Shown: one piece after another, positions 9,613-35,821 of the stretch
Position numbering within the stretch: the first letter of the stretch is position 1
Layout of the letters: every line of letters begins with the position of its first letter
Source: Bacteroidales bacterium
Lineage (GTDB): Bacteria; Bacteroidota; Bacteroidia; Bacteroidales; B18-G4
NCBI GenBank assembly: GCA_030606625.1
Contig: JAUWGC010000002.1
Span: 1 to 43,786, forward strand
DNA length: 43,786 nt
Direction: 5' to 3'
Position numbers and translations under genes: made by a program
Notes under the pieces: model-generated
The model's input: only the letters and a program-made list of their open reading frames with translations
Told to the model about the DNA's origin: nothing
The model's database searches: none

Positions 9613-11469
9613 ATGCATATTTTACCGGAGAAATTCAGCGATATGACTTTAATAGTTTCCCGGGAGAAGAGGGTGTTTTTATTATTATCCCTGATTGTCT
9701 GGGTATATATTTGGTTAAGGGGCGTGAATGTCCCGATCACTATTGATGAAATGGCTACGTTTCTCATGTACGTTCAAACCAATCGCTTTATACCGCCGGA
9801 TATTATGTGGGACGCCAACAATCACTTTCTAAACTCTTTTTTATCTCTGTTGAGCTACCGCCTTTTTGGTTTTTCGGAACTTTCATTACGCTTGCCAAAC
9901 ATCCTGATAGCACCGGTTTATTTTTACTTTGTATATAAGATTGCAAATAGGATTAATCACCTGATACCCCGTTGGGCTTTCCTGCTGGCAATGATAGGAA
10001 CACAATTCATCATCGAGTTTTTCGGTTACACAAGAGGGTATGGCCTATCTCTGGCGTTTCTTACAGGCGCTCTTTACTTTTTATTATCTACATGGCAAAA
10101 GTACCGGTATTCATTTTTCAATTTAACCATTTTATTCATGGTCCTGGCTGTTTTGGCCAACCTTACACTGATTCCCACCGCCCTGATGGTATTCATTCTA
10201 CTGGTTCTCAGCCCTTCTTCCGATTCTGTTGAATCTAATAAAAGACGAAGGTTACTTATACGGACTGGTGTGATGGTTATAGCTGTGATGGTTATAGTAC
10301 TTCTCGCGATTTACTCGTTCAAGCTGCAAAACCTTGGACGATTGTATTATGGAAGCGAGGACGGTTTCCTGACAGTCACTGTGATGACCCTGGCAAAAAT
10401 GGTTGGGTATGAGGCAGGCTTATTATTCGGAGCATTTTTTATCCTGGCTTTTATCACAATAATAGCCGGGGCTATCCGGCTTCTGTTTCTCACGAGGGAT
10501 CAGGGGCTTAGGAGATTTTGCGATTTCCGGTTACTTTTTCCTGTCCTTCTTATTGGAAACATCATAGCCTCCTTGTTATTAAACCAGCTCTGGAATGTAA
10601 ATTTTCAGGAAGACAGGGCTGCTTTATATATGCTGCCGTTGTTTTTTGGTTCGTTATGTATTGTAATGGATGCCCAGGAAGGCAGGAGAAAATACCTTTG
10701 GCAGTATGCAACTCTTCCCTTGTACCTGATTCCCATAATAGGCATATTTCATGTAAGCCTTTATTCCACAGTATATGGCTATAACCAGATGGTGCCGCGA
10801 CAATTCACCAAAACGATCATTAGCGTAATGAATCAAAGGGAAATACCTCCTACCGTTGGAGGTTACCAGACACGCAGACAGCCCTGGGCATTCTATAATC
10901 GCATGGAAGGAGGTTTGTTGAATCCGTTATTCGCAAGTGATTACCCTAACTATTATACTGATTATATGATAATTAATGAGGATGAATTTTCCGACTTCCA
11001 CAATACTCACGAGATCGTAAGTTCGGTTGACAAGCTCCCGCTCCTGTTAATTAAAAGGAAAACAGAGCTTAATAAATTGCTATTGATAAGGAAAACACAT
11101 ATTGAAACACCTGAAAGGCTGGAATATGAATACTATAATCTGTTAGAAGCCGGTGTTGACACCTTGATTGGCAAAACAATATACATTTCACTCGAATTCA
11201 CAGTAGAAGGCAGCGGAACGCCTTTCGAAGGAGTATTTGTAGCATCAGTTTTCGACAGTACCCGGCAAACACTCCGTTACGAGGCAACAGATCTTGATCA
11301 GCTTAAACCAACATGGACACACGAAGAAGGAAATTTCAGGCATGCCATGCTTATCCCCTCCTTACCGGAAAAATCAAATACACTCATCATATATTTCTGG
11401 AACAAGAGAAAAACCGGATATTCATTAAACAACGGAACAATAGAGGTTTTTTGCGTATCGGAAAACTGA
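9613..11469 (+). CDS. Polytopic membrane protein, possibly a GT-C fold (ArnT/PMT-like, GT39-type) glycosyltransferase with a C-terminal soluble domain
   Basis: 618-aa ORF with about 10-12 hydrophobic helices in the first 400 aa, an early DE-containing loop (PITIDEMATF) and a soluble tail of about 200 aa. The family assignment rests on architecture only. Confidence 0.35.
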   Translation: MHILPEKFSDMTLIVSREKRVFLLLSLIVWVYIWLRGVNVPITIDEMATFLMYVQTNRFIPPDIMWDANNHFLNSFLSLLSYRLFGFSELSLRLPNILIAPVYFYFVYKIANRINHLIPRWAFLLAMIGTQFIIEFFGYTRGYGLSLAFLTGALYFLLSTWQKYRYSFFNLTILFMVLAVLANLTLIPTALMVFILLVLSPSSDSVESNKRRRLLIRTGVMVIAVMVIVLLAIYSFKLQNLGRLYYGSEDGFLTVTVMTLAKMVGYEAGLLFGAFFILAFITIIAGAIRLLFLTRDQGLRRFCDFRLLFPVLLIGNIIASLLLNQLWNVNFQEDRAALYMLPLFFGSLCIVMDAQEGRRKYLWQYATLPLYLIPIIGIFHVSLYSTVYGYNQMVPRQFTKTIISVMNQREIPPTVGGYQTRRQPWAFYNRMEGGLLNPLFASDYPNYYTDYMIINEDEFSDFHNTHEIVSSVDKLPLLLIKRKTELNKLLLIRKTHIETPERLEYEYYNLLEAGVDTLIGKTIYISLEFTVEGSGTPFEGVFVASVFDSTRQTLRYEATDLDQLKPTWTHEEGNFRHAMLIPSLPEKSNTLIIYFWNKRKTGYSLNNGTIEVFCVSEN

Positions 11470-28575: not shown

Positions 28576-28923
28576 ATGAAAAAGTATTTTATTCTGTCAG
28601 GAATCCTTATTGCGTTTATTGCTTTAACTTTCAATTTACCGGCAAAAGTCAATCATAATAATGAACAACTCATCTCCTGGAGTGATGATACAACCAAGGT
28701 TGAAAAAAGCATAAGTGACACAAAAATAGAGCTTTCTGATAAAAGTAGTTCTTCCAAAAACTGTAAGGCTAAATGTGATCCGGCTTGCTGTGAGAAAAAA
28801 TGTGATCCGGCTTGTTGTATGAAAAATTGTGATCCTAAGAAATGTAAAATGACAAAAAATTCCGGTTGCTGCAAAGGCCAGGCACATCAAAAGAACTGTT
28901 GCAAAACTCCTAAAAAGAAGTAA
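28576..28923 (+). CDS. Small secreted Cys/Lys-rich repeat protein (KCDPACC-type repeats); possible metal- or redox-active periplasmic protein
   Basis: It has a signal peptide (MKKYFILSGILIAFIALTF). The C-terminal 55 aa contain 15 Cys: NCKAKCDPACCEKKCDPACCMKNCDPKKCKMTKNSGCCKGQAHQKNCCK. I recognise no family. Confidence 0.55.
   Translation: MKKYFILSGILIAFIALTFNLPAKVNHNNEQLISWSDDTTKVEKSISDTKIELSDKSSSSKNCKAKCDPACCEKKCDPACCMKNCDPKKCKMTKNSGCCKGQAHQKNCCKTPKKK
28771..28851 (+). repeat. Three tandem 27-nt (9-codon) repeats encoding KCDPACCxK units
   Basis: The units are aaatgtgatccggcttgctgtgagaaa, aaatgtgatccggcttgttgtatgaaa and aattgtgatcctaagaaatgtaaaatg. Units 1 and 2 are identical at 24 of 27 positions. 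Confidence 0.8.
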
Positions 28924-31324
28924 CAATAAGTGCTTCAATAGTTTTTTCTATCTCATCAGGAGTAACTGTTTCCAGGATCTTTTGTGTTTTCTTTATTGTG
29001 GATGCAAATTTTTCACCTTCGGCAGCACTTATCCAGGCAAGTTGTAAACGTTCAGTATTAATTCCTTTCTTTTCAAGTTTTTTCCACAATCTTTCAACCC
29101 GCTTTTTAGTTTGGTAATTAGCATCAATATAATGACAATCACCGAGATGACATCCAGCAACAAGGACTGCTCCTGCCCCTCTGCGGAATGCCCGTAAGAC
29201 AAATTCTTCAGATACCCGCCCGCTGCACATTGTCCTGATAATTCTTACACTTGAAGGATATTGCATCCTACTCACTCCTGCAAAGTCAGCGCCGGCATAT
29301 GAGCACCAGTTACAGCAAAATGCAACTATCTTTTTATCGGCATTTTCTTCTGTCACGGCATCGATCTGGGCAATGACCTGCTCATCGGTAAAATGTAACA
29401 TGGTAATGGCATCAGACGGGCATTCTGCCGCGCAAGTACCACACCCTGCACAAGCTGCCTCAATAGTATGTGCCGGTATCTTATTCTTAATATCAATCTC
29501 GATGGCGTGATACGGACAAACTTTTACACATCTGCCGCAAATTATACACTTTTCCTCATCAACAACTGACGTAATAGCTTCGACTTTGATTTTGCCTGCC
29601 TTCATCAGGATACTAGCCCTGGAAGCAGCAGCACTTGCCTGTGTCACACTATCCTTGATATCTTTTGGCCCTTCTGCACATCCGGCAAAGAACACACCTT
29701 GTGTTGGTGCGTCGACCGGTTTGAGTTTGGGATGGGATTCCATGAAAAAGCCATCGGAAGTTTTGGAAAGAGTGAACAGTCGCTGTATGATATCGCTATC
29801 TTTCTGAGGCTCAATACCCACCGATAGAACTACCATATCTGCCTCATGCTCCTGAACCTGTCCCGTGTTAGTATTTTCTGATATAACGAACAGGTTTTTT
29901 GTAACCGGATTTTCCCTTATCTCACCAGGCAACCCTCTGATATACATTACACCTTCGCGCCTGGATCTATTATACAGATCTTCAAAACCTTTACCATAAG
30001 CTCTTATATCGAGATAGAATACTTTAATATCAGTATCAGGCCAGTGTTCCTTGATCAGGAGAGAATCTTTGATCGTATTCATACAACAGACATTGCTGCA
30101 ATAAGGATTACCCTTTTTCTTATTTCGTGAGCCAACGCACTGAATAAAGGCAACAGTTTTGGGTATCTTTTTATCATTGGGGCGTATCAGGTGTCCTCCG
30201 CTGGGGCCACCGGCATTGATTAAACGTTCAAATTCGAGACTTGTGATAACATTCTCGTACCGGCGATATCCGTATTCTGTCATTTCCGTCGGGTCATAAA
30301 CATCGATACCTGTAGCAATAATGACCGTACCTATGTCCAATTCAAGTATCTCATCCTGCATATCAAAATCGATAGCATTCTTTTCACATTTTTCAACACA
30401 TTTATTACAGGCAATCGGAACATAGCCCATGCAGTCGTCCATATTAATTATATATGCTGACGGTACGGCCTGTGCAAAAGGAGTATATATGGCTTTTCTT
30501 GTTGCCAGACCCACATCGAATTCATTAGGCCTGACAACAGGACAAACTTCCGTACAATCGCCACAGGCTGTACATTCCTTTTCATCAACAAAACGTGCTT
30601 TCTTCAGTACCTTTATCTTAAAATTTCCCACGTACCCGCTTACATCGATCACCTCGCTGTTGGATAACAAGGTGATATTCGGATGCCTGCCTGCTTCACT
30701 CATTTTGGGAGCAAGAATACAGATAGAGCAATCCATTGTTGGAAAGGTCTTGTCGATCTGAGCCATTTTACCACCTATACTTGGCTCTTTCTCTACCAGG
30801 AATACTTCATAATCCTGATTTGCAAGATCCAATGCGGCCTGTATACCAGCCACACCACCGCCTATGACAAGAGATCTTTTAGTAATGGGTACCTCAGCTT
30901 CAGTTTGCGGCTTGAGCAACCTGGCTCTGGATACTGCCATATTTACAAGATCTTTTGCTTTTTCCGTGGCATTTTCCTTATCATATAAATGTACCCAGCT
31001 ACATTGGTCCCTGATATTGGCCATCTCAAAAAGATAAGGATTTAAGCCTGCCTCGGCACAGGCTGCTCTGAATGTTGGCTCATGCAGGCGAGGTGTACAG
31101 GAAGCCACAACAACCCGGTTTAGCTTTTGTTCTTTGATATCCCGTTTGATGATTTCCTGCCCGGGATCAGAACAGGTGTACTTGTTGTCGTCGGCCACAA
31201 CAACATCAGGAAGCGTGGAAGCATACTCTCTGACTGCAACACAGTCGACAGAACCGGCAATATTCAGGCCGCAATGACAGACATAAACGCCTATTCTGAG
31301 TTCTTCTTTATTGTCAGTATTCAT
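28910..31324 (-). CDS. HdrA-like flavoprotein/iron-sulfur protein fused to a C-terminal MvhD (methyl-viologen-reducing hydrogenase delta subunit) domain
   Basis: The N-terminus RIGVYVCHCGLNIAG is typical of HdrA. The FAD fold is VIGGGVAGIQAALDL, followed by FPTMDCSICILAP. There are several CxxCxxCxxxC ferredoxin motifs. The C-terminal MvhD pattern is VAFCCNWCSYAGAD...IRTMCSGRV...GCHLGDCHY. The gene overlaps the convergent Cys-rich gene by 14 nt. Confidence 0.8.
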   Translation of the reverse strand: MNTDNKEELRIGVYVCHCGLNIAGSVDCVAVREYASTLPDVVVADDNKYTCSDPGQEIIKRDIKEQKLNRVVVASCTPRLHEPTFRAACAEAGLNPYLFEMANIRDQCSWVHLYDKENATEKAKDLVNMAVSRARLLKPQTEAEVPITKRSLVIGGGVAGIQAALDLANQDYEVFLVEKEPSIGGKMAQIDKTFPTMDCSICILAPKMSEAGRHPNITLLSNSEVIDVSGYVGNFKIKVLKKARFVDEKECTACGDCTEVCPVVRPNEFDVGLATRKAIYTPFAQAVPSAYIINMDDCMGYVPIACNKCVEKCEKNAIDFDMQDEILELDIGTVIIATGIDVYDPTEMTEYGYRRYENVITSLEFERLINAGGPSGGHLIRPNDKKIPKTVAFIQCVGSRNKKKGNPYCSNVCCMNTIKDSLLIKEHWPDTDIKVFYLDIRAYGKGFEDLYNRSRREGVMYIRGLPGEIRENPVTKNLFVISENTNTGQVQEHEADMVVLSVGIEPQKDSDIIQRLFTLSKTSDGFFMESHPKLKPVDAPTQGVFFAGCAEGPKDIKDSVTQASAAASRASILMKAGKIKVEAITSVVDEEKCIICGRCVKVCPYHAIEIDIKNKIPAHTIEAACAGCGTCAAECPSDAITMLHFTDEQVIAQIDAVTEENADKKIVAFCCNWCSYAGADFAGVSRMQYPSSVRIIRTMCSGRVSEEFVLRAFRRGAGAVLVAGCHLGDCHYIDANYQTKKRVERLWKKLEKKGINTERLQLAWISAAEGEKFASTIKKTQKILETVTPDEIEKTIEALIVTSF

Positions 31325-32738
31325 TTTGTTTTAAATAATGATCAATACAATCTGCTGCTTTTTTTGCAGAAATTACAGCTTCAGAGACAGTTGCAGGCCC
31401 ATAAATTACATCACCACCGGCAAAAACGCCAGCCATGGTTGTTTCCATTGTCATTGGATTGACTGCAATAGTCCCGTCATTATTCATCATCACTTCTTCA
31501 GGCAGAAAGTTGACTGATGGTACTTCACCGATTGCTACTATTACCATGTCAGTATCCATTTCAAATTCCGAATCTTTGACAGGAACGGGATGTCTCCTTC
31601 CGGTAAGATCAGTAAGGCCCAATTCGATTTTAAGACATTCGGCCTTTTCAATTTTATCTTTTCCAATAAATTTGCCGGGAACTGTCAGGTAATGGATTTT
31701 TACTCCCTTTTCTTCAGCTTCCCTGATCTCATTTTTATCAGCAGGGATCTCTTTACTCGTCCGGCGATAAAGGACATGTACCTCTTTCGATCCTGATATG
31801 GCTGCTGCAGATGCAGCATCCATAGCCGTATTACCTCCTCCGATTACTAATACCTTTTCAGGCATTTTCTTTATTTTATTATTTTTCAGATCTTCCAGAA
31901 ATAACAAAGTATTTGTAACGCCGGGAAGATCTTCACCCGGAATACCTAATTTTAAGCATTTGTGAGCACCGGATGCTATAAAAACAGCACTGAATCCATC
32001 TTTAAATAGCTGGCCAAATGCCAGATCTTCACCGATCTTAATATTTGTTTTAATCTCAATTCCCTGCTTTTTAATATTTTTTATGTCATTATCAATAATG
32101 GCAGTTGGCAGGCGATATTCAGGTATACAGGTACGAAACATACCTCCGGCATTTGGCTGAGCCTCAAAAATTGTAACATGATAACCTTTATGGATAAGCT
32201 CACAGGCAACAAACAGTCCGGCCGGTCCTGATCCAATAACAGCCACTTTATTGTCTGATCGTGGAACAACTGCCTTTTCTTTTTTGAAGTGTATTTTATC
32301 GAATAGCTTGATCATCGTTTCTTTTTCGAGAGGAATCCTTTCGGGATGAAAACACACCCAGAAAAGACTACCTGGAAAGGGTATTTTTTCGCCGATGATT
32401 TTCATCGTTTTTTCCAGGTTTTCCAGGCCTTTTTCCTTAATTGCTTTTCTTCTTAGTTTTAAAAATATATCGGGTAGTTCTATTCCCTGAGGGCATCTTT
32501 TATTACACTGGTAACACGAAGCACAAAACCAAATATCTTTTTCTTCCAGGACTTTTTCAGGATCGATAAGTAATCTTCCCAGCAGGTGATGAGGATTGAA
32601 ATGCTGAGGGAACATTTCCACTATCGGGCATCCAGCGGTACATTTACCACATTCCAGGCATTCATATGCATTTATGATCACCTCTTCAAAAGAACTATCA
32701 AGCTGGATATCATAATTTGTTTTATTTGTTCCCATCAC
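31314..32738 (-). CDS. Fusion of an HdrC-like 2x[4Fe-4S] domain with a GltD/NfnB-like FAD/NAD(P)H oxidoreductase
   Basis: The Fe-S motifs are CLECGKCTAGCP and CASCYQCNKRCP, about 40 aa apart. The Rossmann motifs are VAVIGSGPAGL and VLVIGGGNTAMD, with GVFAGGD near the C-terminus. It overlaps the hdrA-like start by 11 nt. Confidence 0.7.
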   Translation of the reverse strand: MMGTNKTNYDIQLDSSFEEVIINAYECLECGKCTAGCPIVEMFPQHFNPHHLLGRLLIDPEKVLEEKDIWFCASCYQCNKRCPQGIELPDIFLKLRRKAIKEKGLENLEKTMKIIGEKIPFPGSLFWVCFHPERIPLEKETMIKLFDKIHFKKEKAVVPRSDNKVAVIGSGPAGLFVACELIHKGYHVTIFEAQPNAGGMFRTCIPEYRLPTAIIDNDIKNIKKQGIEIKTNIKIGEDLAFGQLFKDGFSAVFIASGAHKCLKLGIPGEDLPGVTNTLLFLEDLKNNKIKKMPEKVLVIGGGNTAMDAASAAAISGSKEVHVLYRRTSKEIPADKNEIREAEEKGVKIHYLTVPGKFIGKDKIEKAECLKIELGLTDLTGRRHPVPVKDSEFEMDTDMVIVAIGEVPSVNFLPEEVMMNNDGTIAVNPMTMETTMAGVFAGGDVIYGPATVSEAVISAKKAADCIDHYLKQNEY

Positions 32739-32744
32739 TTATAT

Positions 32745-33293
32745 CTATTTTGACTTTTTGAGGCCATAATTGTAACCTGTATGAAAAGCTTTCAGGTTCA
32801 GTTCCTCTGTGCCCACAGGAATGCTGGACAGCAATGCATCTTCCATTGATTTAGTCTCAATAATATCAGTGACCGCTGTGAAAAAACCAAGCATGATAAT
32901 ATTTGCAACGATCTTCCTTCCAATATCCTCAGCAAAACGGGTAGCAGGAATTGAAAAAATTTTGGTCCCCGAAGGAAATTTATTGCTATTTTCCACCATA
33001 TCATCGTCATAGATAAGCATACCATTACTATTCAATCCGGGAACATACTTGTCATATGCTTCTTTTGACATTACTATAAGTATATCGGGATGTAATACTT
33101 CCGGATAATCTATTTCACTATCGGAAATAATGACCTGTGCACTACAGGCCCCTCCCCGTGATTCCGGCCCGTAGCTTTGAGTCAATGTAGCATATTTTTT
33201 ATCATAAATTGTAGCGGCTTTTCCCATGATATACCCTGACAGTATGATTCCCTGTCCGCCGAATCCGCATATTTTAATATCGGTATGTTTCAT
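32745..33293 (-). CDS. 2-oxoacid:ferredoxin oxidoreductase, gamma subunit
   Basis: 182 aa with the motif ICGFGGQGIILSG. It overlaps the beta subunit gene by 4 nt. Confidence 0.8.
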   Translation of the reverse strand: MKHTDIKICGFGGQGIILSGYIMGKAATIYDKKYATLTQSYGPESRGGACSAQVIISDSEIDYPEVLHPDILIVMSKEAYDKYVPGLNSNGMLIYDDDMVENSNKFPSGTKIFSIPATRFAEDIGRKIVANIIMLGFFTAVTDIIETKSMEDALLSSIPVGTEELNLKAFHTGYNYGLKKSK

Positions 33294-34126
33294 TTTTTAT
33301 TTTTTTCTGCCATTGACAACAGGTCTGGCTGTTTATCCAAAAAGGTTGGTTTGTCTATATCAATGAATTTTCCCACAACTATTTTTCCATTCAGGTCTAA
33401 ATCAGTATCTTTAGGATCGATACCGTGACTGATCACGCTGTTTTTCTGGTAATATTTCATTTCTTCGAGTCCGTCTCCGAGTTTATTTCTTCTCCCATAA
33501 CTGGTAGGACATGGGGAGATTATTTCAATAAATGTGAATCCTTTCTTAAGTAATGCTTCTTTGATAGATTTGGTCAGACGTCTGACATGTAAGCTTGTCC
33601 ACCTGGCCACAAAAACAGCTCCACTACCTGCAGCAACATGTACCAGGTTGAACGGATGTTCATAATTACCATATGGAGAAGTTGTTGTAATGGCGTCGAG
33701 TGGAGTGGTAGGACCATACTGGCCACCTGTCATACCATAATTGAAATTGTTTACACAAATAATATTGATATCTACGTTTCTCCTTGCAGCATGGATAAAG
33801 TGGTTACCGCCTATTGCGAACAAATCTCCGTCGCCACTAAATACCGTGACTGTCAGTTCCGGATTTGCTAATTTCAAACCAGTGGCAAATGGGATGGCTC
33901 GTCCGTGTGTGGTATGATAGGAATCGATATTAGTATACCCAGGTATTCTTCCGGTACAACCGATACCAGAGACAATGACACATTTGTCTGTGTCCAGTCC
34001 TGACTGGTCAAGGGCTGACAGAAAACATGAAAAATTGGTCCCTAATCCGCATCCTGAGCACCAGATATGTGGCATCCTATCAGCCCGGATAAGCTTATCC
34101 ATGGGATGTATGTCATTCCGGCTCAT
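33290..34126 (-). CDS. 2-oxoacid:ferredoxin oxidoreductase, beta (TPP-binding) subunit
   Basis: Motifs WCSGCG, GIGCTG and the TPP motif GDGDLFAIGGNHFIHAARRN...NNFNYGMTGGQ. Confidence 0.85.
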   Translation of the reverse strand: MSRNDIHPMDKLIRADRMPHIWCSGCGLGTNFSCFLSALDQSGLDTDKCVIVSGIGCTGRIPGYTNIDSYHTTHGRAIPFATGLKLANPELTVTVFSGDGDLFAIGGNHFIHAARRNVDINIICVNNFNYGMTGGQYGPTTPLDAITTTSPYGNYEHPFNLVHVAAGSGAVFVARWTSLHVRRLTKSIKEALLKKGFTFIEIISPCPTSYGRRNKLGDGLEEMKYYQKNSVISHGIDPKDTDLDLNGKIVVGKFIDIDKPTFLDKQPDLLSMAEKNKK

Positions 34127-35277
34127 GTGTTATTAACCTCCTTAATTACATTTAAAATTTCATATGGTGTATGTATCCTGGCAAGTTTTGGCAGAGAAAT
34201 TATCTCACACCGGCTCTTAGAACAACGTTCCACTTCACGTACAATTTGCCCTTTATTTATTTCCGGAACTATAATTGCCCTTGCTTTTGTTGCTAATTCA
34301 AGTATCTTTTCTTCAGGGAACGGCCAGACGGTTATAATCCGTATAAGTCCGGCCTTGATTCCTTCTTTTCGCGCTAATCTGATGGCTCTTAGTGCTGATC
34401 TTGCCGGAGAGCCATATGCTGCCACTATGATTTCAGCATCATCCAGCTCGCTCACTTCAAACTCAATAATATCATCTTTGTTTTTCCGGATTTTATCACA
34501 AAGTCTTGTAATTAGTTTTTCCTCCGCTTCAGCACTCATATCCGGATAACCTTTCTCATCATGGGTCAGTCCTGTAGCAATGACTTTGTACCCTTCACCG
34601 GCATTGGCCATACAGGGTACCAGGTCTTTTTCAGGCCTGTACATTAAATACTTATCAGGACCTCTCTTGGGCTTTTTCCTGTTAACAATATGAATATCTC
34701 CTTTTTTAGGGATGACAACCTTTTCTGTCATATGTCCCACGATCTCATCGGACATGATCAATACCGGGAGGCGATATTTTTCAGAAAGATTAAATGCTTT
34801 TATTGTATAATCGAACATTTCCTGAGGAGAGCTTGGCGTAAGCGCAATCACTTCGTAATCACCATGAGAGCCCCATCTGGCCTGCATCATATCCTGCTGC
34901 CCAACCATTGTCGGCAATCCGGTGCTGGGCCCTCCTCTCTGGATGTTCACCAGAACACAGGGGATCTCCATCATAATTCCCAGTCCGAAATTTTCCATCA
35001 TCAGGCTAAATCCTGGTCCCGATGTCGCGGTCATTGATTTTACGCCGGCACAGGAAGCTCCCAGAATTGCATTCATGGATGCCAGTTCATCTTCCATTTG
35101 AATGAATATACCTCCTACCTGGGGCATCCTTCTTGATAATGCTTCAGATATTTCAGTGGCGGGTGTGATTGGATAACCGGCAAAGAAACGGCAACCGGCG
35201 GCTATTGCACCCTCGGCGCAGGCAAAATCACCATTCATAAAATGTTCTCCGGTTAAAACCGGTAGTTTAATTTTCAT
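34123..35277 (-). CDS. 2-oxoacid:ferredoxin oxidoreductase, alpha subunit
   Basis: NGDFACAEGAIAAGCRFFAGYPITPATEI is typical of KorA/PorA/VorA alpha subunits. The likely start is the ATG at 35277 (MKIKLPVLTG); the ORF extends to 35352 across the delta gene. Confidence 0.85.
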   Translation of the reverse strand: MKIKLPVLTGEHFMNGDFACAEGAIAAGCRFFAGYPITPATEISEALSRRMPQVGGIFIQMEDELASMNAILGASCAGVKSMTATSGPGFSLMMENFGLGIMMEIPCVLVNIQRGGPSTGLPTMVGQQDMMQARWGSHGDYEVIALTPSSPQEMFDYTIKAFNLSEKYRLPVLIMSDEIVGHMTEKVVIPKKGDIHIVNRKKPKRGPDKYLMYRPEKDLVPCMANAGEGYKVIATGLTHDEKGYPDMSAEAEEKLITRLCDKIRKNKDDIIEFEVSELDDAEIIVAAYGSPARSALRAIRLARKEGIKAGLIRIITVWPFPEEKILELATKARAIIVPEINKGQIVREVERCSKSRCEIISLPKLARIHTPYEILNVIKEVNNT

Positions 35278-35560
35278 GTGGATCTTCTTTTGGTATTGTT
35301 TCTTGCTTGTCTTCAGTAACATAAATAGCAAACTCCGGACAGATAAGTTCACATAATTTACATGCTACACATCCAGCCGGATCTTTTACCTGAGGTGGAT
35401 GATATCCTTTAGCATTAAATTCATCTGAAACTTCCAGCACTTTATTTGAACAAAACTCAATACAAAAATTACAACCTTTACAACGATCTTTTATGATGTG
35501 TATGGTGCCATGAGGAATCTTATACCTGTCAATATCCAGGGGTTTACGCCAGTAGTCCAT
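35267..35560 (-). CDS. 2-oxoacid:ferredoxin oxidoreductase, delta (2x[4Fe-4S] ferredoxin) subunit
   Basis: Motifs CKGCNFCIEFCS and CVACKLCELICP. The likely start is MDYWRKPLDIDRY at 35560; a GTG at 35590 is the alternative. Confidence 0.75.
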   Translation of the reverse strand: MDYWRKPLDIDRYKIPHGTIHIIKDRCKGCNFCIEFCSNKVLEVSDEFNAKGYHPPQVKDPAGCVACKLCELICPEFAIYVTEDKQETIPKEDPHEN

Positions 35561-35681
35561 ACCAGTAGTCCATAACAATACAAATTGCACCTGTTTTTTA
35601 GGCTATAAATGACTTCCCTTATATACTTAAAAATTCAGATGCATTAAAGTGGCACTAAAAATAACACGAAAGTTCAATAAA

Positions 35682-35704
35682 TCAAATATTTTTAATAAAT
35701 ATTT
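35682..35704. promoter_or_regulatory. AT-rich palindrome CAAATATTT-ttaat-AAATATTTG upstream of the kor-hdr operon
   Basis: It has 9-bp perfect arms and lies about 120 nt upstream of the ATG at 35560. The composition is low-complexity, so a chance occurrence is possible. Confidence 0.2.
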
Positions 35705-35821
35705 GTATTTTAAAATGCTATTTTGGTCAAATGGGGTGACGAAAAGACTTCAGTAGCATGGTTTATACCCCCTTAAAGCAATAATACCCTGCAGTAAGGC
35801 CGCATATTGCTCTTTTTAACC

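Follow-up and report, generated by a model that had tools for sequence, protein, structure and literature searches.

A six-gene cluster in a Bacteroidales bacterium that joins a 2-oxoacid:ferredoxin oxidoreductase to HdrA2 and an HdrC/GltD-type flavoprotein without HdrB

HdrA modules are among the few known engines of flavin-based electron bifurcation and, to our knowledge, every characterised example ends either in HdrB-type disulfide reduction or in HdrB-like BamD (class II benzoyl-CoA reductase). What, then, might be served by an HdrA that is encoded without HdrB, beside the genes of a 2-oxoacid:ferredoxin oxidoreductase (OFOR)? This question is raised by a 43,786-nucleotide stretch of contig JAUWGC010000002.1 from a Bacteroidales bacterium (assembly GCA_030606625.1; this whole stretch is hereafter the window). 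Here, six co-directional genes occupy positions 35560..28910 of the minus strand: OFOR delta, alpha, beta and gamma, a 474-aa protein that combines an HdrC-type domain with an NfnB/GltD-type module, and an 804-aa HdrA-MvhD fusion, HdrA2. By the open reading frame (ORF) coordinates, taken in gene order, the first three junctions are overlaps (11, 4 and 4 nt), the fourth is a gap of 6 nt and the last is again an overlap, of 11 nt; an earlier note on this DNA had described exactly this packing, and its coordinates are identical to ours. The domain assignments that it gave to the six proteins are likewise upheld by Pfam, NCBIfam and PDB-sequence matches. We hypothesize that the cluster encodes an HdrA-type bifurcating or confurcating unit with three terminals, in which NADP(H) would stand in for the heterodisulfide, OFOR would be the low-potential partner and ferredoxin the third; we put the probability of this reading at roughly 40%.

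The HdrA2 protein (28910..31324, minus strand) scores 1284.9 bits against NF040770, for which the cut-off is 1100, and it matches both 5odc_A and 5odc_D. Its HdrA core (aa 7–659; 29348..31306) contains a TrxR-like flavin adenine dinucleotide (FAD) domain, an N-terminal cluster, and inserted and C-terminal ferredoxin domains; it aligns over its full length with the crystal structure of Methanothermobacter wolfeii HdrA (5odc_A; E=7.8e-261). The Cys motifs of the two proteins are in register throughout: VCHCG, C76, C108, DCSIC (199/202), CTACGDCTEVCP, C298/306/309/313, C396, C409/413/414, C549, CIICGRCVKVCP and CAGCGTCAAECP. Furthermore, K419 aligns with K409 of M. wolfeii HdrA; a lysine close to N5 of the flavin is described as a hallmark of the Hdr-type bifurcating FAD (preprint 10.64898/2026.04.10.717634). 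The HdrA Cys motifs, C199/C202 and K419 are all invariant in an 11-sequence alignment that spans bacteria and archaea. Thus the alignment to 5odc_A accounts for the ligands of six [4Fe-4S] clusters and for the TrxR-like FAD domain; the earlier note had named the loss of these ligands on alignment as one of the findings that would refute its reading, and the FAD-site and cluster ligands are all present. The C-terminal MvhD domain (aa 663–795; 28940..29338), a [2Fe-2S] adaptor, matches 5odc_D (E=1.1e-46), is also homologous to 7bkb_F, and is recognised by the FlpD/MvhD Pfam model at aa 666–785 (E=5e-50), with Cys670/671/674/700/725/730 invariant.

Relatives of HdrA2 with >70% identity number in the thousands, in both Bacteria and Archaea. 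Identities of 70–75% link Bacteroidota, Bathyarchaeia, Thermoplasmata, Planctomycetota and a Eubacterium-labelled record (P0084, P0036 and others); this degree of conservation is unusually high for an 800-aa protein compared across domains, and suggests that the cluster has spread horizontally not long ago and is under strong constraint. A separate observation concerns a relative in Desulfobacterium sp. TRIP AH-1 (locus L016), in which an in-frame TGA (10595-10597) lies at the position of C202, the second Cys of DCSIC. This HdrA2 is an apparent selenocysteine protein, and selenocysteine at that position would fit a redox-active role for the residue.

The 474-aa protein (31314..32738, minus strand) is an Fe-S flavoprotein for which Pfam/NCBIfam, structure-profile comparison and AlphaFold2 (AF2) modelling point to an HdrC-type di-[4Fe-4S] domain followed by an NfnB/GltD-type FAD/NADP(H) module. 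The former (aa 18–107; 32418..32687) carries two CX2CX2CX3CP motifs (Cys27/30/33/37 and Cys72/75/78/82) and matches HdrC itself (5odc_C, E=2.9e-12); the N-terminus is also recognised by Fer4_8 and by TIGR03290 (E=9e-17, aa 26–107). This domain covers residues 25–112 of the 184 in 5odc_C, and the C-terminal part of HdrC, which clasps HdrB, is missing. The flavin and pyridine-nucleotide module (aa 157–470; 31329..32270) is Pyr_redox_2/GltD-like, with GxGxxG at 169–174, GGGN at 300–303 and Y324-R325-R326; its relatives, at E=1e-64 to 1e-80, include 9n5u_A (NfnABC, E=1.8e-80), 8oh5_C (Stn), 4ylf_B (NfnB) and 5jca_L (NfnL). The eight cluster Cys, GxGxxG, GGGN and YRR are invariant across 18 homologues. 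We take the YRR motif (324–326) to be the mark of NADPH-type binding, as in GltD and NfnB. On the other hand, the canonical CPxxCExxC cluster motif of NfnB has shrunk to VC129-F-H-P, five residues being deleted by comparison with 9bov_A, and the operon contains no NfnA-like ORF ([2Fe-2S] plus FAD, with an NAD(H) site).

The AF2 model of the 474-aa protein (predicted local distance difference score, pLDDT, 85; predicted template-modelling score, pTM, 0.85) has 5jca_L as its top Foldseek match (E=3.5e-40, TM 0.68). Because the whole chain of the model superposes on NfnL, NfnB and GltD, the predicted structure places this protein in the NfnB/GltD family of flavoproteins. The idea that the fold by itself might prove an HdrC origin was dropped, as NfnL/GltD have an N-domain onto which the N-terminal di-cluster domain of the model fits as well.

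The four remaining genes, all on the minus strand, encode the OFOR. The alpha subunit (384 aa; 34123..35277) has POR_N and PFOR_II domains and scores 570 bits against NF006412 (cut-off 411); its best PDB relatives are 1yd7_A, the alpha subunit of a Pyrococcus furiosus 2-keto acid:ferredoxin oxidoreductase (E=1e-123), and 8ys5_A, the alpha subunit of a 2-oxoglutarate synthase (E=5.6e-81). The beta subunit (278 aa; 33290..34126), which matches TPP_enzyme_C and 8ys5_C (E=2e-65), has in its translation both a thiamine pyrophosphate (TPP) motif, GDG-X24-NN, and four cysteines (Cys23, Cys26, Cys57 and Cys205) for its [4Fe-4S] cluster. Gamma (182 aa; 32745..33293) consists of a POR domain that scores 234.6 bits with NF006323, at the cut-off of 235. 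Delta (97 aa; 35267..35560, with its ATG at 35560 in an ORF that is open up to a GTG at 35590) is a ferredoxin-like protein of the 2x[4Fe-4S] type: it has a Fer4_7 match, weak OGOR_delta/OorD matches and two CxxCxxCxxxC motifs in translation, and homologues of 49–68% identity hold the same position in related clusters. Alpha, beta, gamma and delta are therefore encoded together, as expected of a four-subunit enzyme of the KGOR/Oor type, and we predict that this OFOR is a catalytically intact member of that group; the OorA/KorA, OGOR-beta and OGOR-delta equivalog models match its subunits with scores below their cut-offs. At the start of the delta gene there is a 12-nt direct duplication, ATGGACTACTGG, with a 13-nt period (35549-35573, minus strand); of its two ATG codons, the second (35560) alone is in frame with the delta ORF.

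How general is the association of OFOR with HdrA2? A scan with an HdrA2 alignment, taking one genome per species, yielded 80 loci, which were searched by tblastn with the six proteins of the window; a neighbour-joining tree of HdrA2 then defined a clade of 29 loci plus the window. Homologues of OFOR delta, alpha, beta and gamma (48–79% identity) occur only beside an HdrA2 that is at least 59% identical to that of the window. OFOR genes flank HdrA2 at 19/29 loci inside the clade vs 0/56 outside (Fisher p=4.7e-12), and most of the ten OFOR-less clade loci are contigs that end within 2–4.5 kb of hdrA2. In the reciprocal scan, metagenome contigs were searched with OFOR alpha, and an HdrA2 of at least 55% identity was found at 21 of the 26 loci that have at least 9 kb downstream. 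Since the synteny is conserved reciprocally, the linkage of OFOR to HdrA2 is beyond chance; the tie between the two that the earlier note had proposed, to be followed up by a survey of genomes, is thus borne out in both directions.

The six-gene order of the window recurs in a Marinifilaceae metagenome-assembled genome (MAG; L001), in a 'Bacteroides sp.' MAG (L005), in two metagenome contigs (L088 and L089) and in the cultured Ancylomarina euxinus (L085; GCA_003863355.1, contig QQWG01000019.1). Contigs of Bathyarchaeia type (L002, L003, L030, L086 and L087) show the order fusion-HdrA2-delta-alpha-beta-gamma, with 0–8-nt junctions; between Bacteroidota and Bathyarchaeia, identity is about 70% for HdrA2 and about 63% for OFOR alpha/beta. 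The cluster is not unique to this genome, being widespread in Marinifilaceae, Bathyarchaeia and, as HdrB-containing variants, Desulfobacterota. Among HdrA modules, it is a biochemically uncharacterised type that moves horizontally.

Three further loci have neighbours of interest. In one of the archaeal contigs (L087, 4598-7301), the cluster is directly preceded, on the opposite strand, by genes for a class I/II aminotransferase and a D-2-hydroxyacid dehydrogenase, which would fit a role in amino-acid or 2-oxoacid metabolism. In a Thermoplasmata genome (CP070629.1; L004, 7805-12398), a CCG protein and an HdrA2 (72% identical) are followed by OFOR-type delta and gamma, with no alpha/beta nearby; the association with OFOR is thus partial at this locus. 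Desulfobulbus rhabdoformis DSM 8777 (L011, 4130-12409) has an HdrA2 of the clade with full flanks that contain neither OFOR nor a CCG neighbour; upstream of this HdrA2 are genes for glycine-cleavage P-protein subunits and a lipoate-protein ligase, as well as a radical-SAM gene, which hints at a lipoyl-protein-linked role.

We next consider the HdrC branch of the module, at which HdrB would be expected. An iterated hidden Markov model (HMM) of the CCG domain, applied to all six-frame ORFs, detected no HdrB in the operon or in the 43.8-kb window, confirming the absence that had been claimed for the cluster; the same HMM matched 60 ORFs beside other HdrA genes. Nor was a CCG ORF found within up to 10 kb at any locus that contains the HdrC/GltD fusion (L001-L003, L005, L008, L015, L025, L030 and L085-L089). 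Three layouts can be distinguished in the clade. In one, delta-alpha-beta-gamma is accompanied by HdrA2, HdrC and HdrB(CCG) (e.g., L007, L014 and L027; L017, L107, L128 and L132 are CCG-containing relatives). The second and commonest, found in Desulfobacterota and at most metagenome loci, comprises delta-alpha-beta-gamma, an NfnB-like protein of ~1100 aa, an MvhD-HdrC-HdrB fusion and HdrA2. The third is that of the window, with the HdrC/GltD fusion and no CCG protein. Across the clade loci, the HdrC/GltD fusion and HdrB are mutually exclusive; that the two never occur together reads as a module swap, by which an NADP(H) flavin module may have replaced the disulfide-reducing subunit on the HdrC branch.

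The second layout, which also appears to be uncharacterised, has two extra proteins (L016, 4923-9890, with equivalents at L012, L013, L018-L020, L024 and many of L093-L164). The larger, of ~1120 aa, is made up of an NfnB-like module and of domains that resemble the HdrA N-terminus and the C-terminal ferredoxin domain; the other is a triple fusion, MvhD-HdrC-HdrB(CCG), of ~530 aa.

A variation on the third layout is instructive. In an Undinarchaeales MAG of the DPANN group (JASMDC010000006.1; L015, 5988-16559), the HdrC/GltD fusion and HdrA2 are embedded among genes for formylmethanofuran dehydrogenase (Fwd), in the order FwdA-FwdC-[fusion]-[HdrA2]-FwdDB-FwdA-FwdC; all Fwd models score above their TIGRFAM cut-offs, and there is no OFOR despite full flanks. 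Here, the pair of fusion and HdrA2 may serve another CO2-reducing enzyme that works at about -500 mV or below.

Comparison with known systems shows what is familiar in this cluster and what is not. The closest characterised enzyme is HdrA2B2C2 of Methanosarcina acetivorans, which uses ferredoxin as a partner and for which homologues in non-methanogens have been noted, with NAD(P)H or other acceptors being speculated in place of F420H2 and CoMS-SCoB (Yan, Wang and Ferry 2017, PMC5296606). An HdrA-MvhD fusion is common to this enzyme and the window, and the window protein is ~48% identical to a Methanosarcina HdrA2 (L037); unlike the methanogen system, the window encodes neither HdrB2 nor a free-standing HdrC2, its HdrC-type domain is fused to an NfnB/GltD module, its HdrA2 is in an operon with OFOR, and neither F420 nor coenzymes M and B (CoM and CoB) are expected in Bacteroidota. 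With the methanogen complexes MvhAGD-HdrABC and Fdh/Fmd-Hdr (5ODC, 7BKB and 8RVU), the window shares an HdrA core that is about 60% identical and keeps all cofactor ligands, a homologous MvhD and a homologous HdrC-type di-cluster domain; it lacks the hydrogenase or formate dehydrogenase that acts as donor and the non-cubane clusters of HdrB, and the couple at the end of its HdrC branch would be NADP(H). The NfnB-type flavin/NADPH module resembles, by sequence and predicted fold, those of the transhydrogenases NfnAB/NfnSL, NfnABC and StnABC (4YLF, 5JCA, 9N5U, 9BOV and 8OH5), from which the 474-aa protein differs in having no NfnA-type partner, a CPxxCExxC motif reduced to C129-x-H-P, HdrC-type N-terminal clusters and HdrA2 as its partner.

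OFORs with an NAD(P)-reducing flavoprotein subunit are also known, namely the 2-oxoglutarate:NADP+ oxidoreductase KorABC of Azoarcus evansii and the phenylglyoxylate:NAD+ oxidoreductase PadEFGHI, neither of which is bifurcating. These resemble the window in tying TPP/Fe-S 2-oxoacid oxidation to a pyridine nucleotide; unlike it, they have a single small flavoprotein and no HdrA/MvhD. An NAD(P)H-type module is joined to HdrA in another way in type III HdrA, in which a GltD/NfnB-like module is inserted in the inserted-ferredoxin domain and Mvh and HdrBC are present in the clusters (PMC12054007, PMC9012536). This arrangement offers a Rosetta-stone-like support for a functional pairing of HdrA with GltD, bearing in mind that the type III module is on the ferredoxin branch with HdrBC present, whereas in the window the module is carried by a subunit of its own, joined to an HdrC-type domain, and there is no HdrB. 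Finally, in tubeworm symbionts and in Thioflavicoccus, KorABCD is part of an Flx-Hdr cluster of the reductive tricarboxylic acid (rTCA) cycle (Rubin-Blum 2019, PMC6315080; Mitchell 2024, PMC11636981), lying between hdrA and hdrBC in the symbiont Endoriftia, and a direct low-potential feed from the HdrA bifurcation module to 2-oxoglutarate:ferredoxin oxidoreductase (OGOR) has been proposed from synteny and co-expression (PMC6315080, PMC11636981). That cluster, like ours, places a four-subunit OFOR beside HdrA and includes a GltD-related oxidoreductase; the window has no FlxABCD (for NADH input), HdrBC, thiol:fumarate reductase or autotrophic rTCA setting, and it would have NADP(H) on the HdrC branch. 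We found no description of a cluster of OFOR, HdrC/GltD and HdrA2 without HdrB in the open-access full-text literature, outside which most subscription journals lie. The statement in the earlier note that it knew of no characterised OFOR-HdrA-MvhD assembly stands insofar as no biochemical characterisation was found in the open-access literature, but it needs narrowing, in that a KorABCD-HdrA linkage had already been proposed (PMC6315080, PMC11636981).

From the gene content, ligand conservation and reciprocal synteny described above, we infer a physical complex and, within it, the branch assignment, NADPH specificity, substrate and direction that are set out here. In the solved Hdr complexes, electrons enter the HdrA flavin via MvhD; the high-potential electron exits from HdrC to HdrB, and the low-potential electron exits via the HdrA ferredoxin domains. 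In methanogens, the low-potential electrons of HdrA reportedly pass directly to formylmethanofuran dehydrogenase (PDB 7BKB; Watanabe 2021), and this direct wiring of HdrA to a CO2-reducing enzyme parallels the OFOR and Fwd synteny observed here. By analogy, the HdrC-type di-cluster domain of the 474-aa subunit would dock on the HdrC branch of HdrA, which would then end in the NfnB/GltD-type FAD for hydride exchange with NADP(H), with no HdrB or disulfide; NADP+/NADPH would be the high-potential couple instead of the heterodisulfide. OFOR, via delta, would occupy the low-potential branch, in the position that formylmethanofuran dehydrogenase has in the methanogen Hdr supercomplexes. We favour that branch for OFOR because it is where Fwd would be in the Undinarchaeales locus and where OGOR stands in the tubeworm-symbiont model. 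The third partner would be a ferredoxin or flavodoxin of intermediate potential. The couples concerned lie at about -500 mV for acyl-CoA+CO2/2-oxoacid, -400 to -500 mV for ferredoxin, and -320 mV (about -370 mV in vivo) for NADP+/NADPH (Thauer 1977; Buckel and Thauer 2018). These values therefore make ferredoxin a plausible mid-potential partner.

The net reversible reaction would be: 2-oxoacid + CoA + NADPH + 4 Fd(ox) <-> acyl-CoA + CO2 + NADP+ + H+ + 4 Fd(red), where Fd is ferredoxin. In the forward direction, this would be a confurcation, in which the low-potential electrons of the 2-oxoacid pull the oxidation of NADPH to the level of ferredoxin in peptide- and amino-acid-fermenting organisms. 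Its 1:1 stoichiometry would match amino-acid deamination coupled to a transaminase and NADP-glutamate dehydrogenase, and would suit peptide-fermenting Bathyarchaeia and Marinifilaceae. Run backwards, the reaction would use ferredoxin to drive both reductive carboxylation and the formation of NADPH. Two other arrangements were considered and rejected. One had NADPH as the donor at a bifurcating NfnB-type FAD, with the [2Fe-2S] cluster of MvhD acting as NfnA; it was set aside as a lead since no terminal high-potential acceptor is encoded in the operon. The other was a confurcation of NADPH and Fd(red) that drives carboxylation, for which the mean of ~-435 mV is too positive to reach ~-500 mV.

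Several considerations weigh against the three-terminal unit. In every organism that carries the cluster, the case for it is built from sequence and comparative genomics. The delta-alpha-beta-gamma genes and the fusion-HdrA2 pair behave as two cassettes, their order differing between Bacteroidota and Bathyarchaeia, and the pair occurs without a nearby OFOR at three loci (L015, with full flanks, and L008 and L025, on short contigs); this behaviour fits two separate enzymes equally well. The HdrC-type label for the N-terminus of the 474-aa protein comes from sequence profiles, and its fold matches the N-domain of NfnL/GltD too; a preference of this protein for NADPH over NADH is suggested by a motif. 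The drive from NADP+ (-320 to -370 mV) to OFOR (-500 mV) would be small compared with that provided by the disulfide in canonical Hdr (-140 mV), so the need for true bifurcation is questionable. These results would allow OFOR to dock on either branch, inserted-ferredoxin or MvhD, and, as to the 2-oxoacid substrate, the specific OorA/KorA models score below their cut-offs.

The mobility of the fusion-HdrA2 pair, which stands with Fwd in the Undinarchaeales MAG, without OFOR on the two short contigs, and, in archaea, on the other flank of the OFOR genes, leads to the alternative that the operon encodes two separate, co-transcribed enzymes: an ordinary ferredoxin-reducing OFOR, the subunits of which do look complete and canonical, and a soluble Fd:NADP+ oxidoreductase made of HdrA2 and HdrC/GltD, which would resemble Nfn or FNR and may bifurcate with some additional partner. 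The two would then be linked via the ferredoxin pool only. It also suits this alternative that 5/26 close OFOR relatives have no HdrA2 within 10 kb. What makes us regard it as unlikely, though a serious contender, is the very strong reciprocal synteny across phyla and domains, the overlaps of translational-coupling type at the gene junctions, and the apparent transfer of the whole set as a unit (HdrA2 ~70% and OFOR alpha/beta ~63% identical between Bacteroidota and Bathyarchaeia); moreover, a plain Fd:NADP+ reductase could do with far less than a complete six-cluster HdrA and an MvhD domain. If there is a single complex, OFOR could instead be the donor at the MvhD branch, replacing hydrogenase, with the flavin splitting electrons 1:1 to NADP+ on the HdrC branch and to ferredoxin on the inserted-ferredoxin branch, the ferredoxin possibly being of unusually low potential. 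This picture is the nearest to that of the earlier note; MvhD is the adaptor to the donor module in the solved Mvh-Hdr and Fdh-Hdr complexes (to which ours is related through 5odc_D and 7bkb_F), and the operon encodes no other donor. Yet both outputs would be exergonic from a donor at ~-500 mV, such that obligatory coupling would bring no obvious benefit, the published tubeworm-symbiont model has OGOR on the acceptor side, and the Fwd-linked relative points to the low-potential output position; we consider a donor role for OFOR improbable.

A complex of yet simpler function, a non-bifurcating 2-oxoacid:NADP+ oxidoreductase in which HdrA2 is a wire from OFOR to the GltD-type FAD, has its precedent in the OFORs that possess an extra flavoprotein subunit for NAD(P) reduction (the NCBIfam models of the Pad subunits give weak matches), and a GltD-type FAD can by itself convert one-electron to two-electron transfer. 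The precedents, KorABC and PadEFGHI, manage with one small flavoprotein, whereas an 804-aa HdrA2 with all the hallmarks of bifurcation and 70–83% identity is hard to explain as a wire that would, in addition, waste about 150–200 mV; such a role strikes us as quite improbable. Least credible of all is a conventional heterodisulfide or protein-disulfide reductase for which an HdrBC partner is encoded elsewhere in the genome, leaving the 474-aa protein as an accessory input for NADPH. HdrA2 does pass the cut-off of the NCBI model and most HdrA2 relatives have an adjacent CCG protein, but none of the fusion-containing loci shows a CCG ORF in flanks of up to 10 kb, the fusion and an adjacent HdrB being mutually exclusive; the HdrC-type domain is covalently tied to the flavin module and lacks the C-terminal part of HdrC, and the host is not a methanogen.

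Should the three-terminal unit be correct, an HdrB-less, NADP(H)-referenced version would extend the chemistry of HdrA to central carbon and amino-acid metabolism. It is possible, if less likely than not, that this is the first HdrA-type bifurcating enzyme without thiol/disulfide chemistry: a soluble complex in which the HdrC-NfnB fusion refers the module to NADP, the low-potential branch is hard-wired to a TPP-dependent 2-oxoacid oxidoreductase, and 2-oxoacid plus NADPH would be exchanged reversibly for four reduced ferredoxins. Amino-acid fermenters (Bathyarchaeia and Marinifilaceae) would gain a means of reoxidising NADPH to the level of ferredoxin and H2, while the reverse reaction would supply the drive for reductive carboxylation. 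As a portable 'NADP-referenced bifurcation cassette', the fusion-HdrA2 pair would in some archaea serve formylmethanofuran dehydrogenase too. The question bears on how fermenters reoxidise the NAD(P)H from oxidative deamination when H2 is the sink, and on the means by which Bacteroides, Prevotella and other anaerobes achieve the reductive carboxylation of acyl-CoA at about -500 mV; Bathyarchaeia and sediment Bacteroidota, the groups in point, are very abundant and poorly understood. There is also a problem of annotation: the NCBI rule gives proteins of the window type the name 'CoB-CoM heterodisulfide reductase HdrA2' although their hosts synthesise neither CoB nor CoM, and the database name of the 474-aa partner subunit is 'FAD-dependent oxidoreductase'. 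As the identical operon is present in the cultured Ancylomarina euxinus, our hypothesis is directly testable.

With regard to its surroundings, the block is a self-contained six-gene unit because it is preceded by a 231-bp AT-rich intergenic spacer (35591..35821), which lies 5' of delta and is the presumed promoter region, and is bounded at its 3' end by a convergent plus-strand ORF, which shares 14 nt with the end of hdrA2. Promoter and terminator scans of the operon were uninformative, with terminator-like sites at chance level, and a search for the Bacteroidetes -33/-7 motif gave no match inside the upstream intergenic region; the case for co-transcription therefore rests on gene spacing and synteny. 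The other genes of the window encode type IX secretion system (T9SS) cargo proteins, two-component systems, an AraC regulator, a glycosyltransferase and a helicase, none with a functional link to the operon. The T9SS sorting domains and an RprY-like regulator among these neighbours fit the assignment of the host to Bacteroidota, which the earlier note had read correctly, and a 98%-identical copy of the 474-aa protein is present in a record labelled 'MAG: Bacteroidetes bacterium'. The convergent ORF at the end of hdrA2 (28576-28923, plus strand; 115 aa) has no Pfam or NCBIfam match; it begins with a signal-like hydrophobic N-terminal stretch, and its Cys-rich tail repeats the unit 'KCDPACC(E/M)K(K/N)C'. 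A secreted peptide, metal-binding or Cys-rich, is one possibility.

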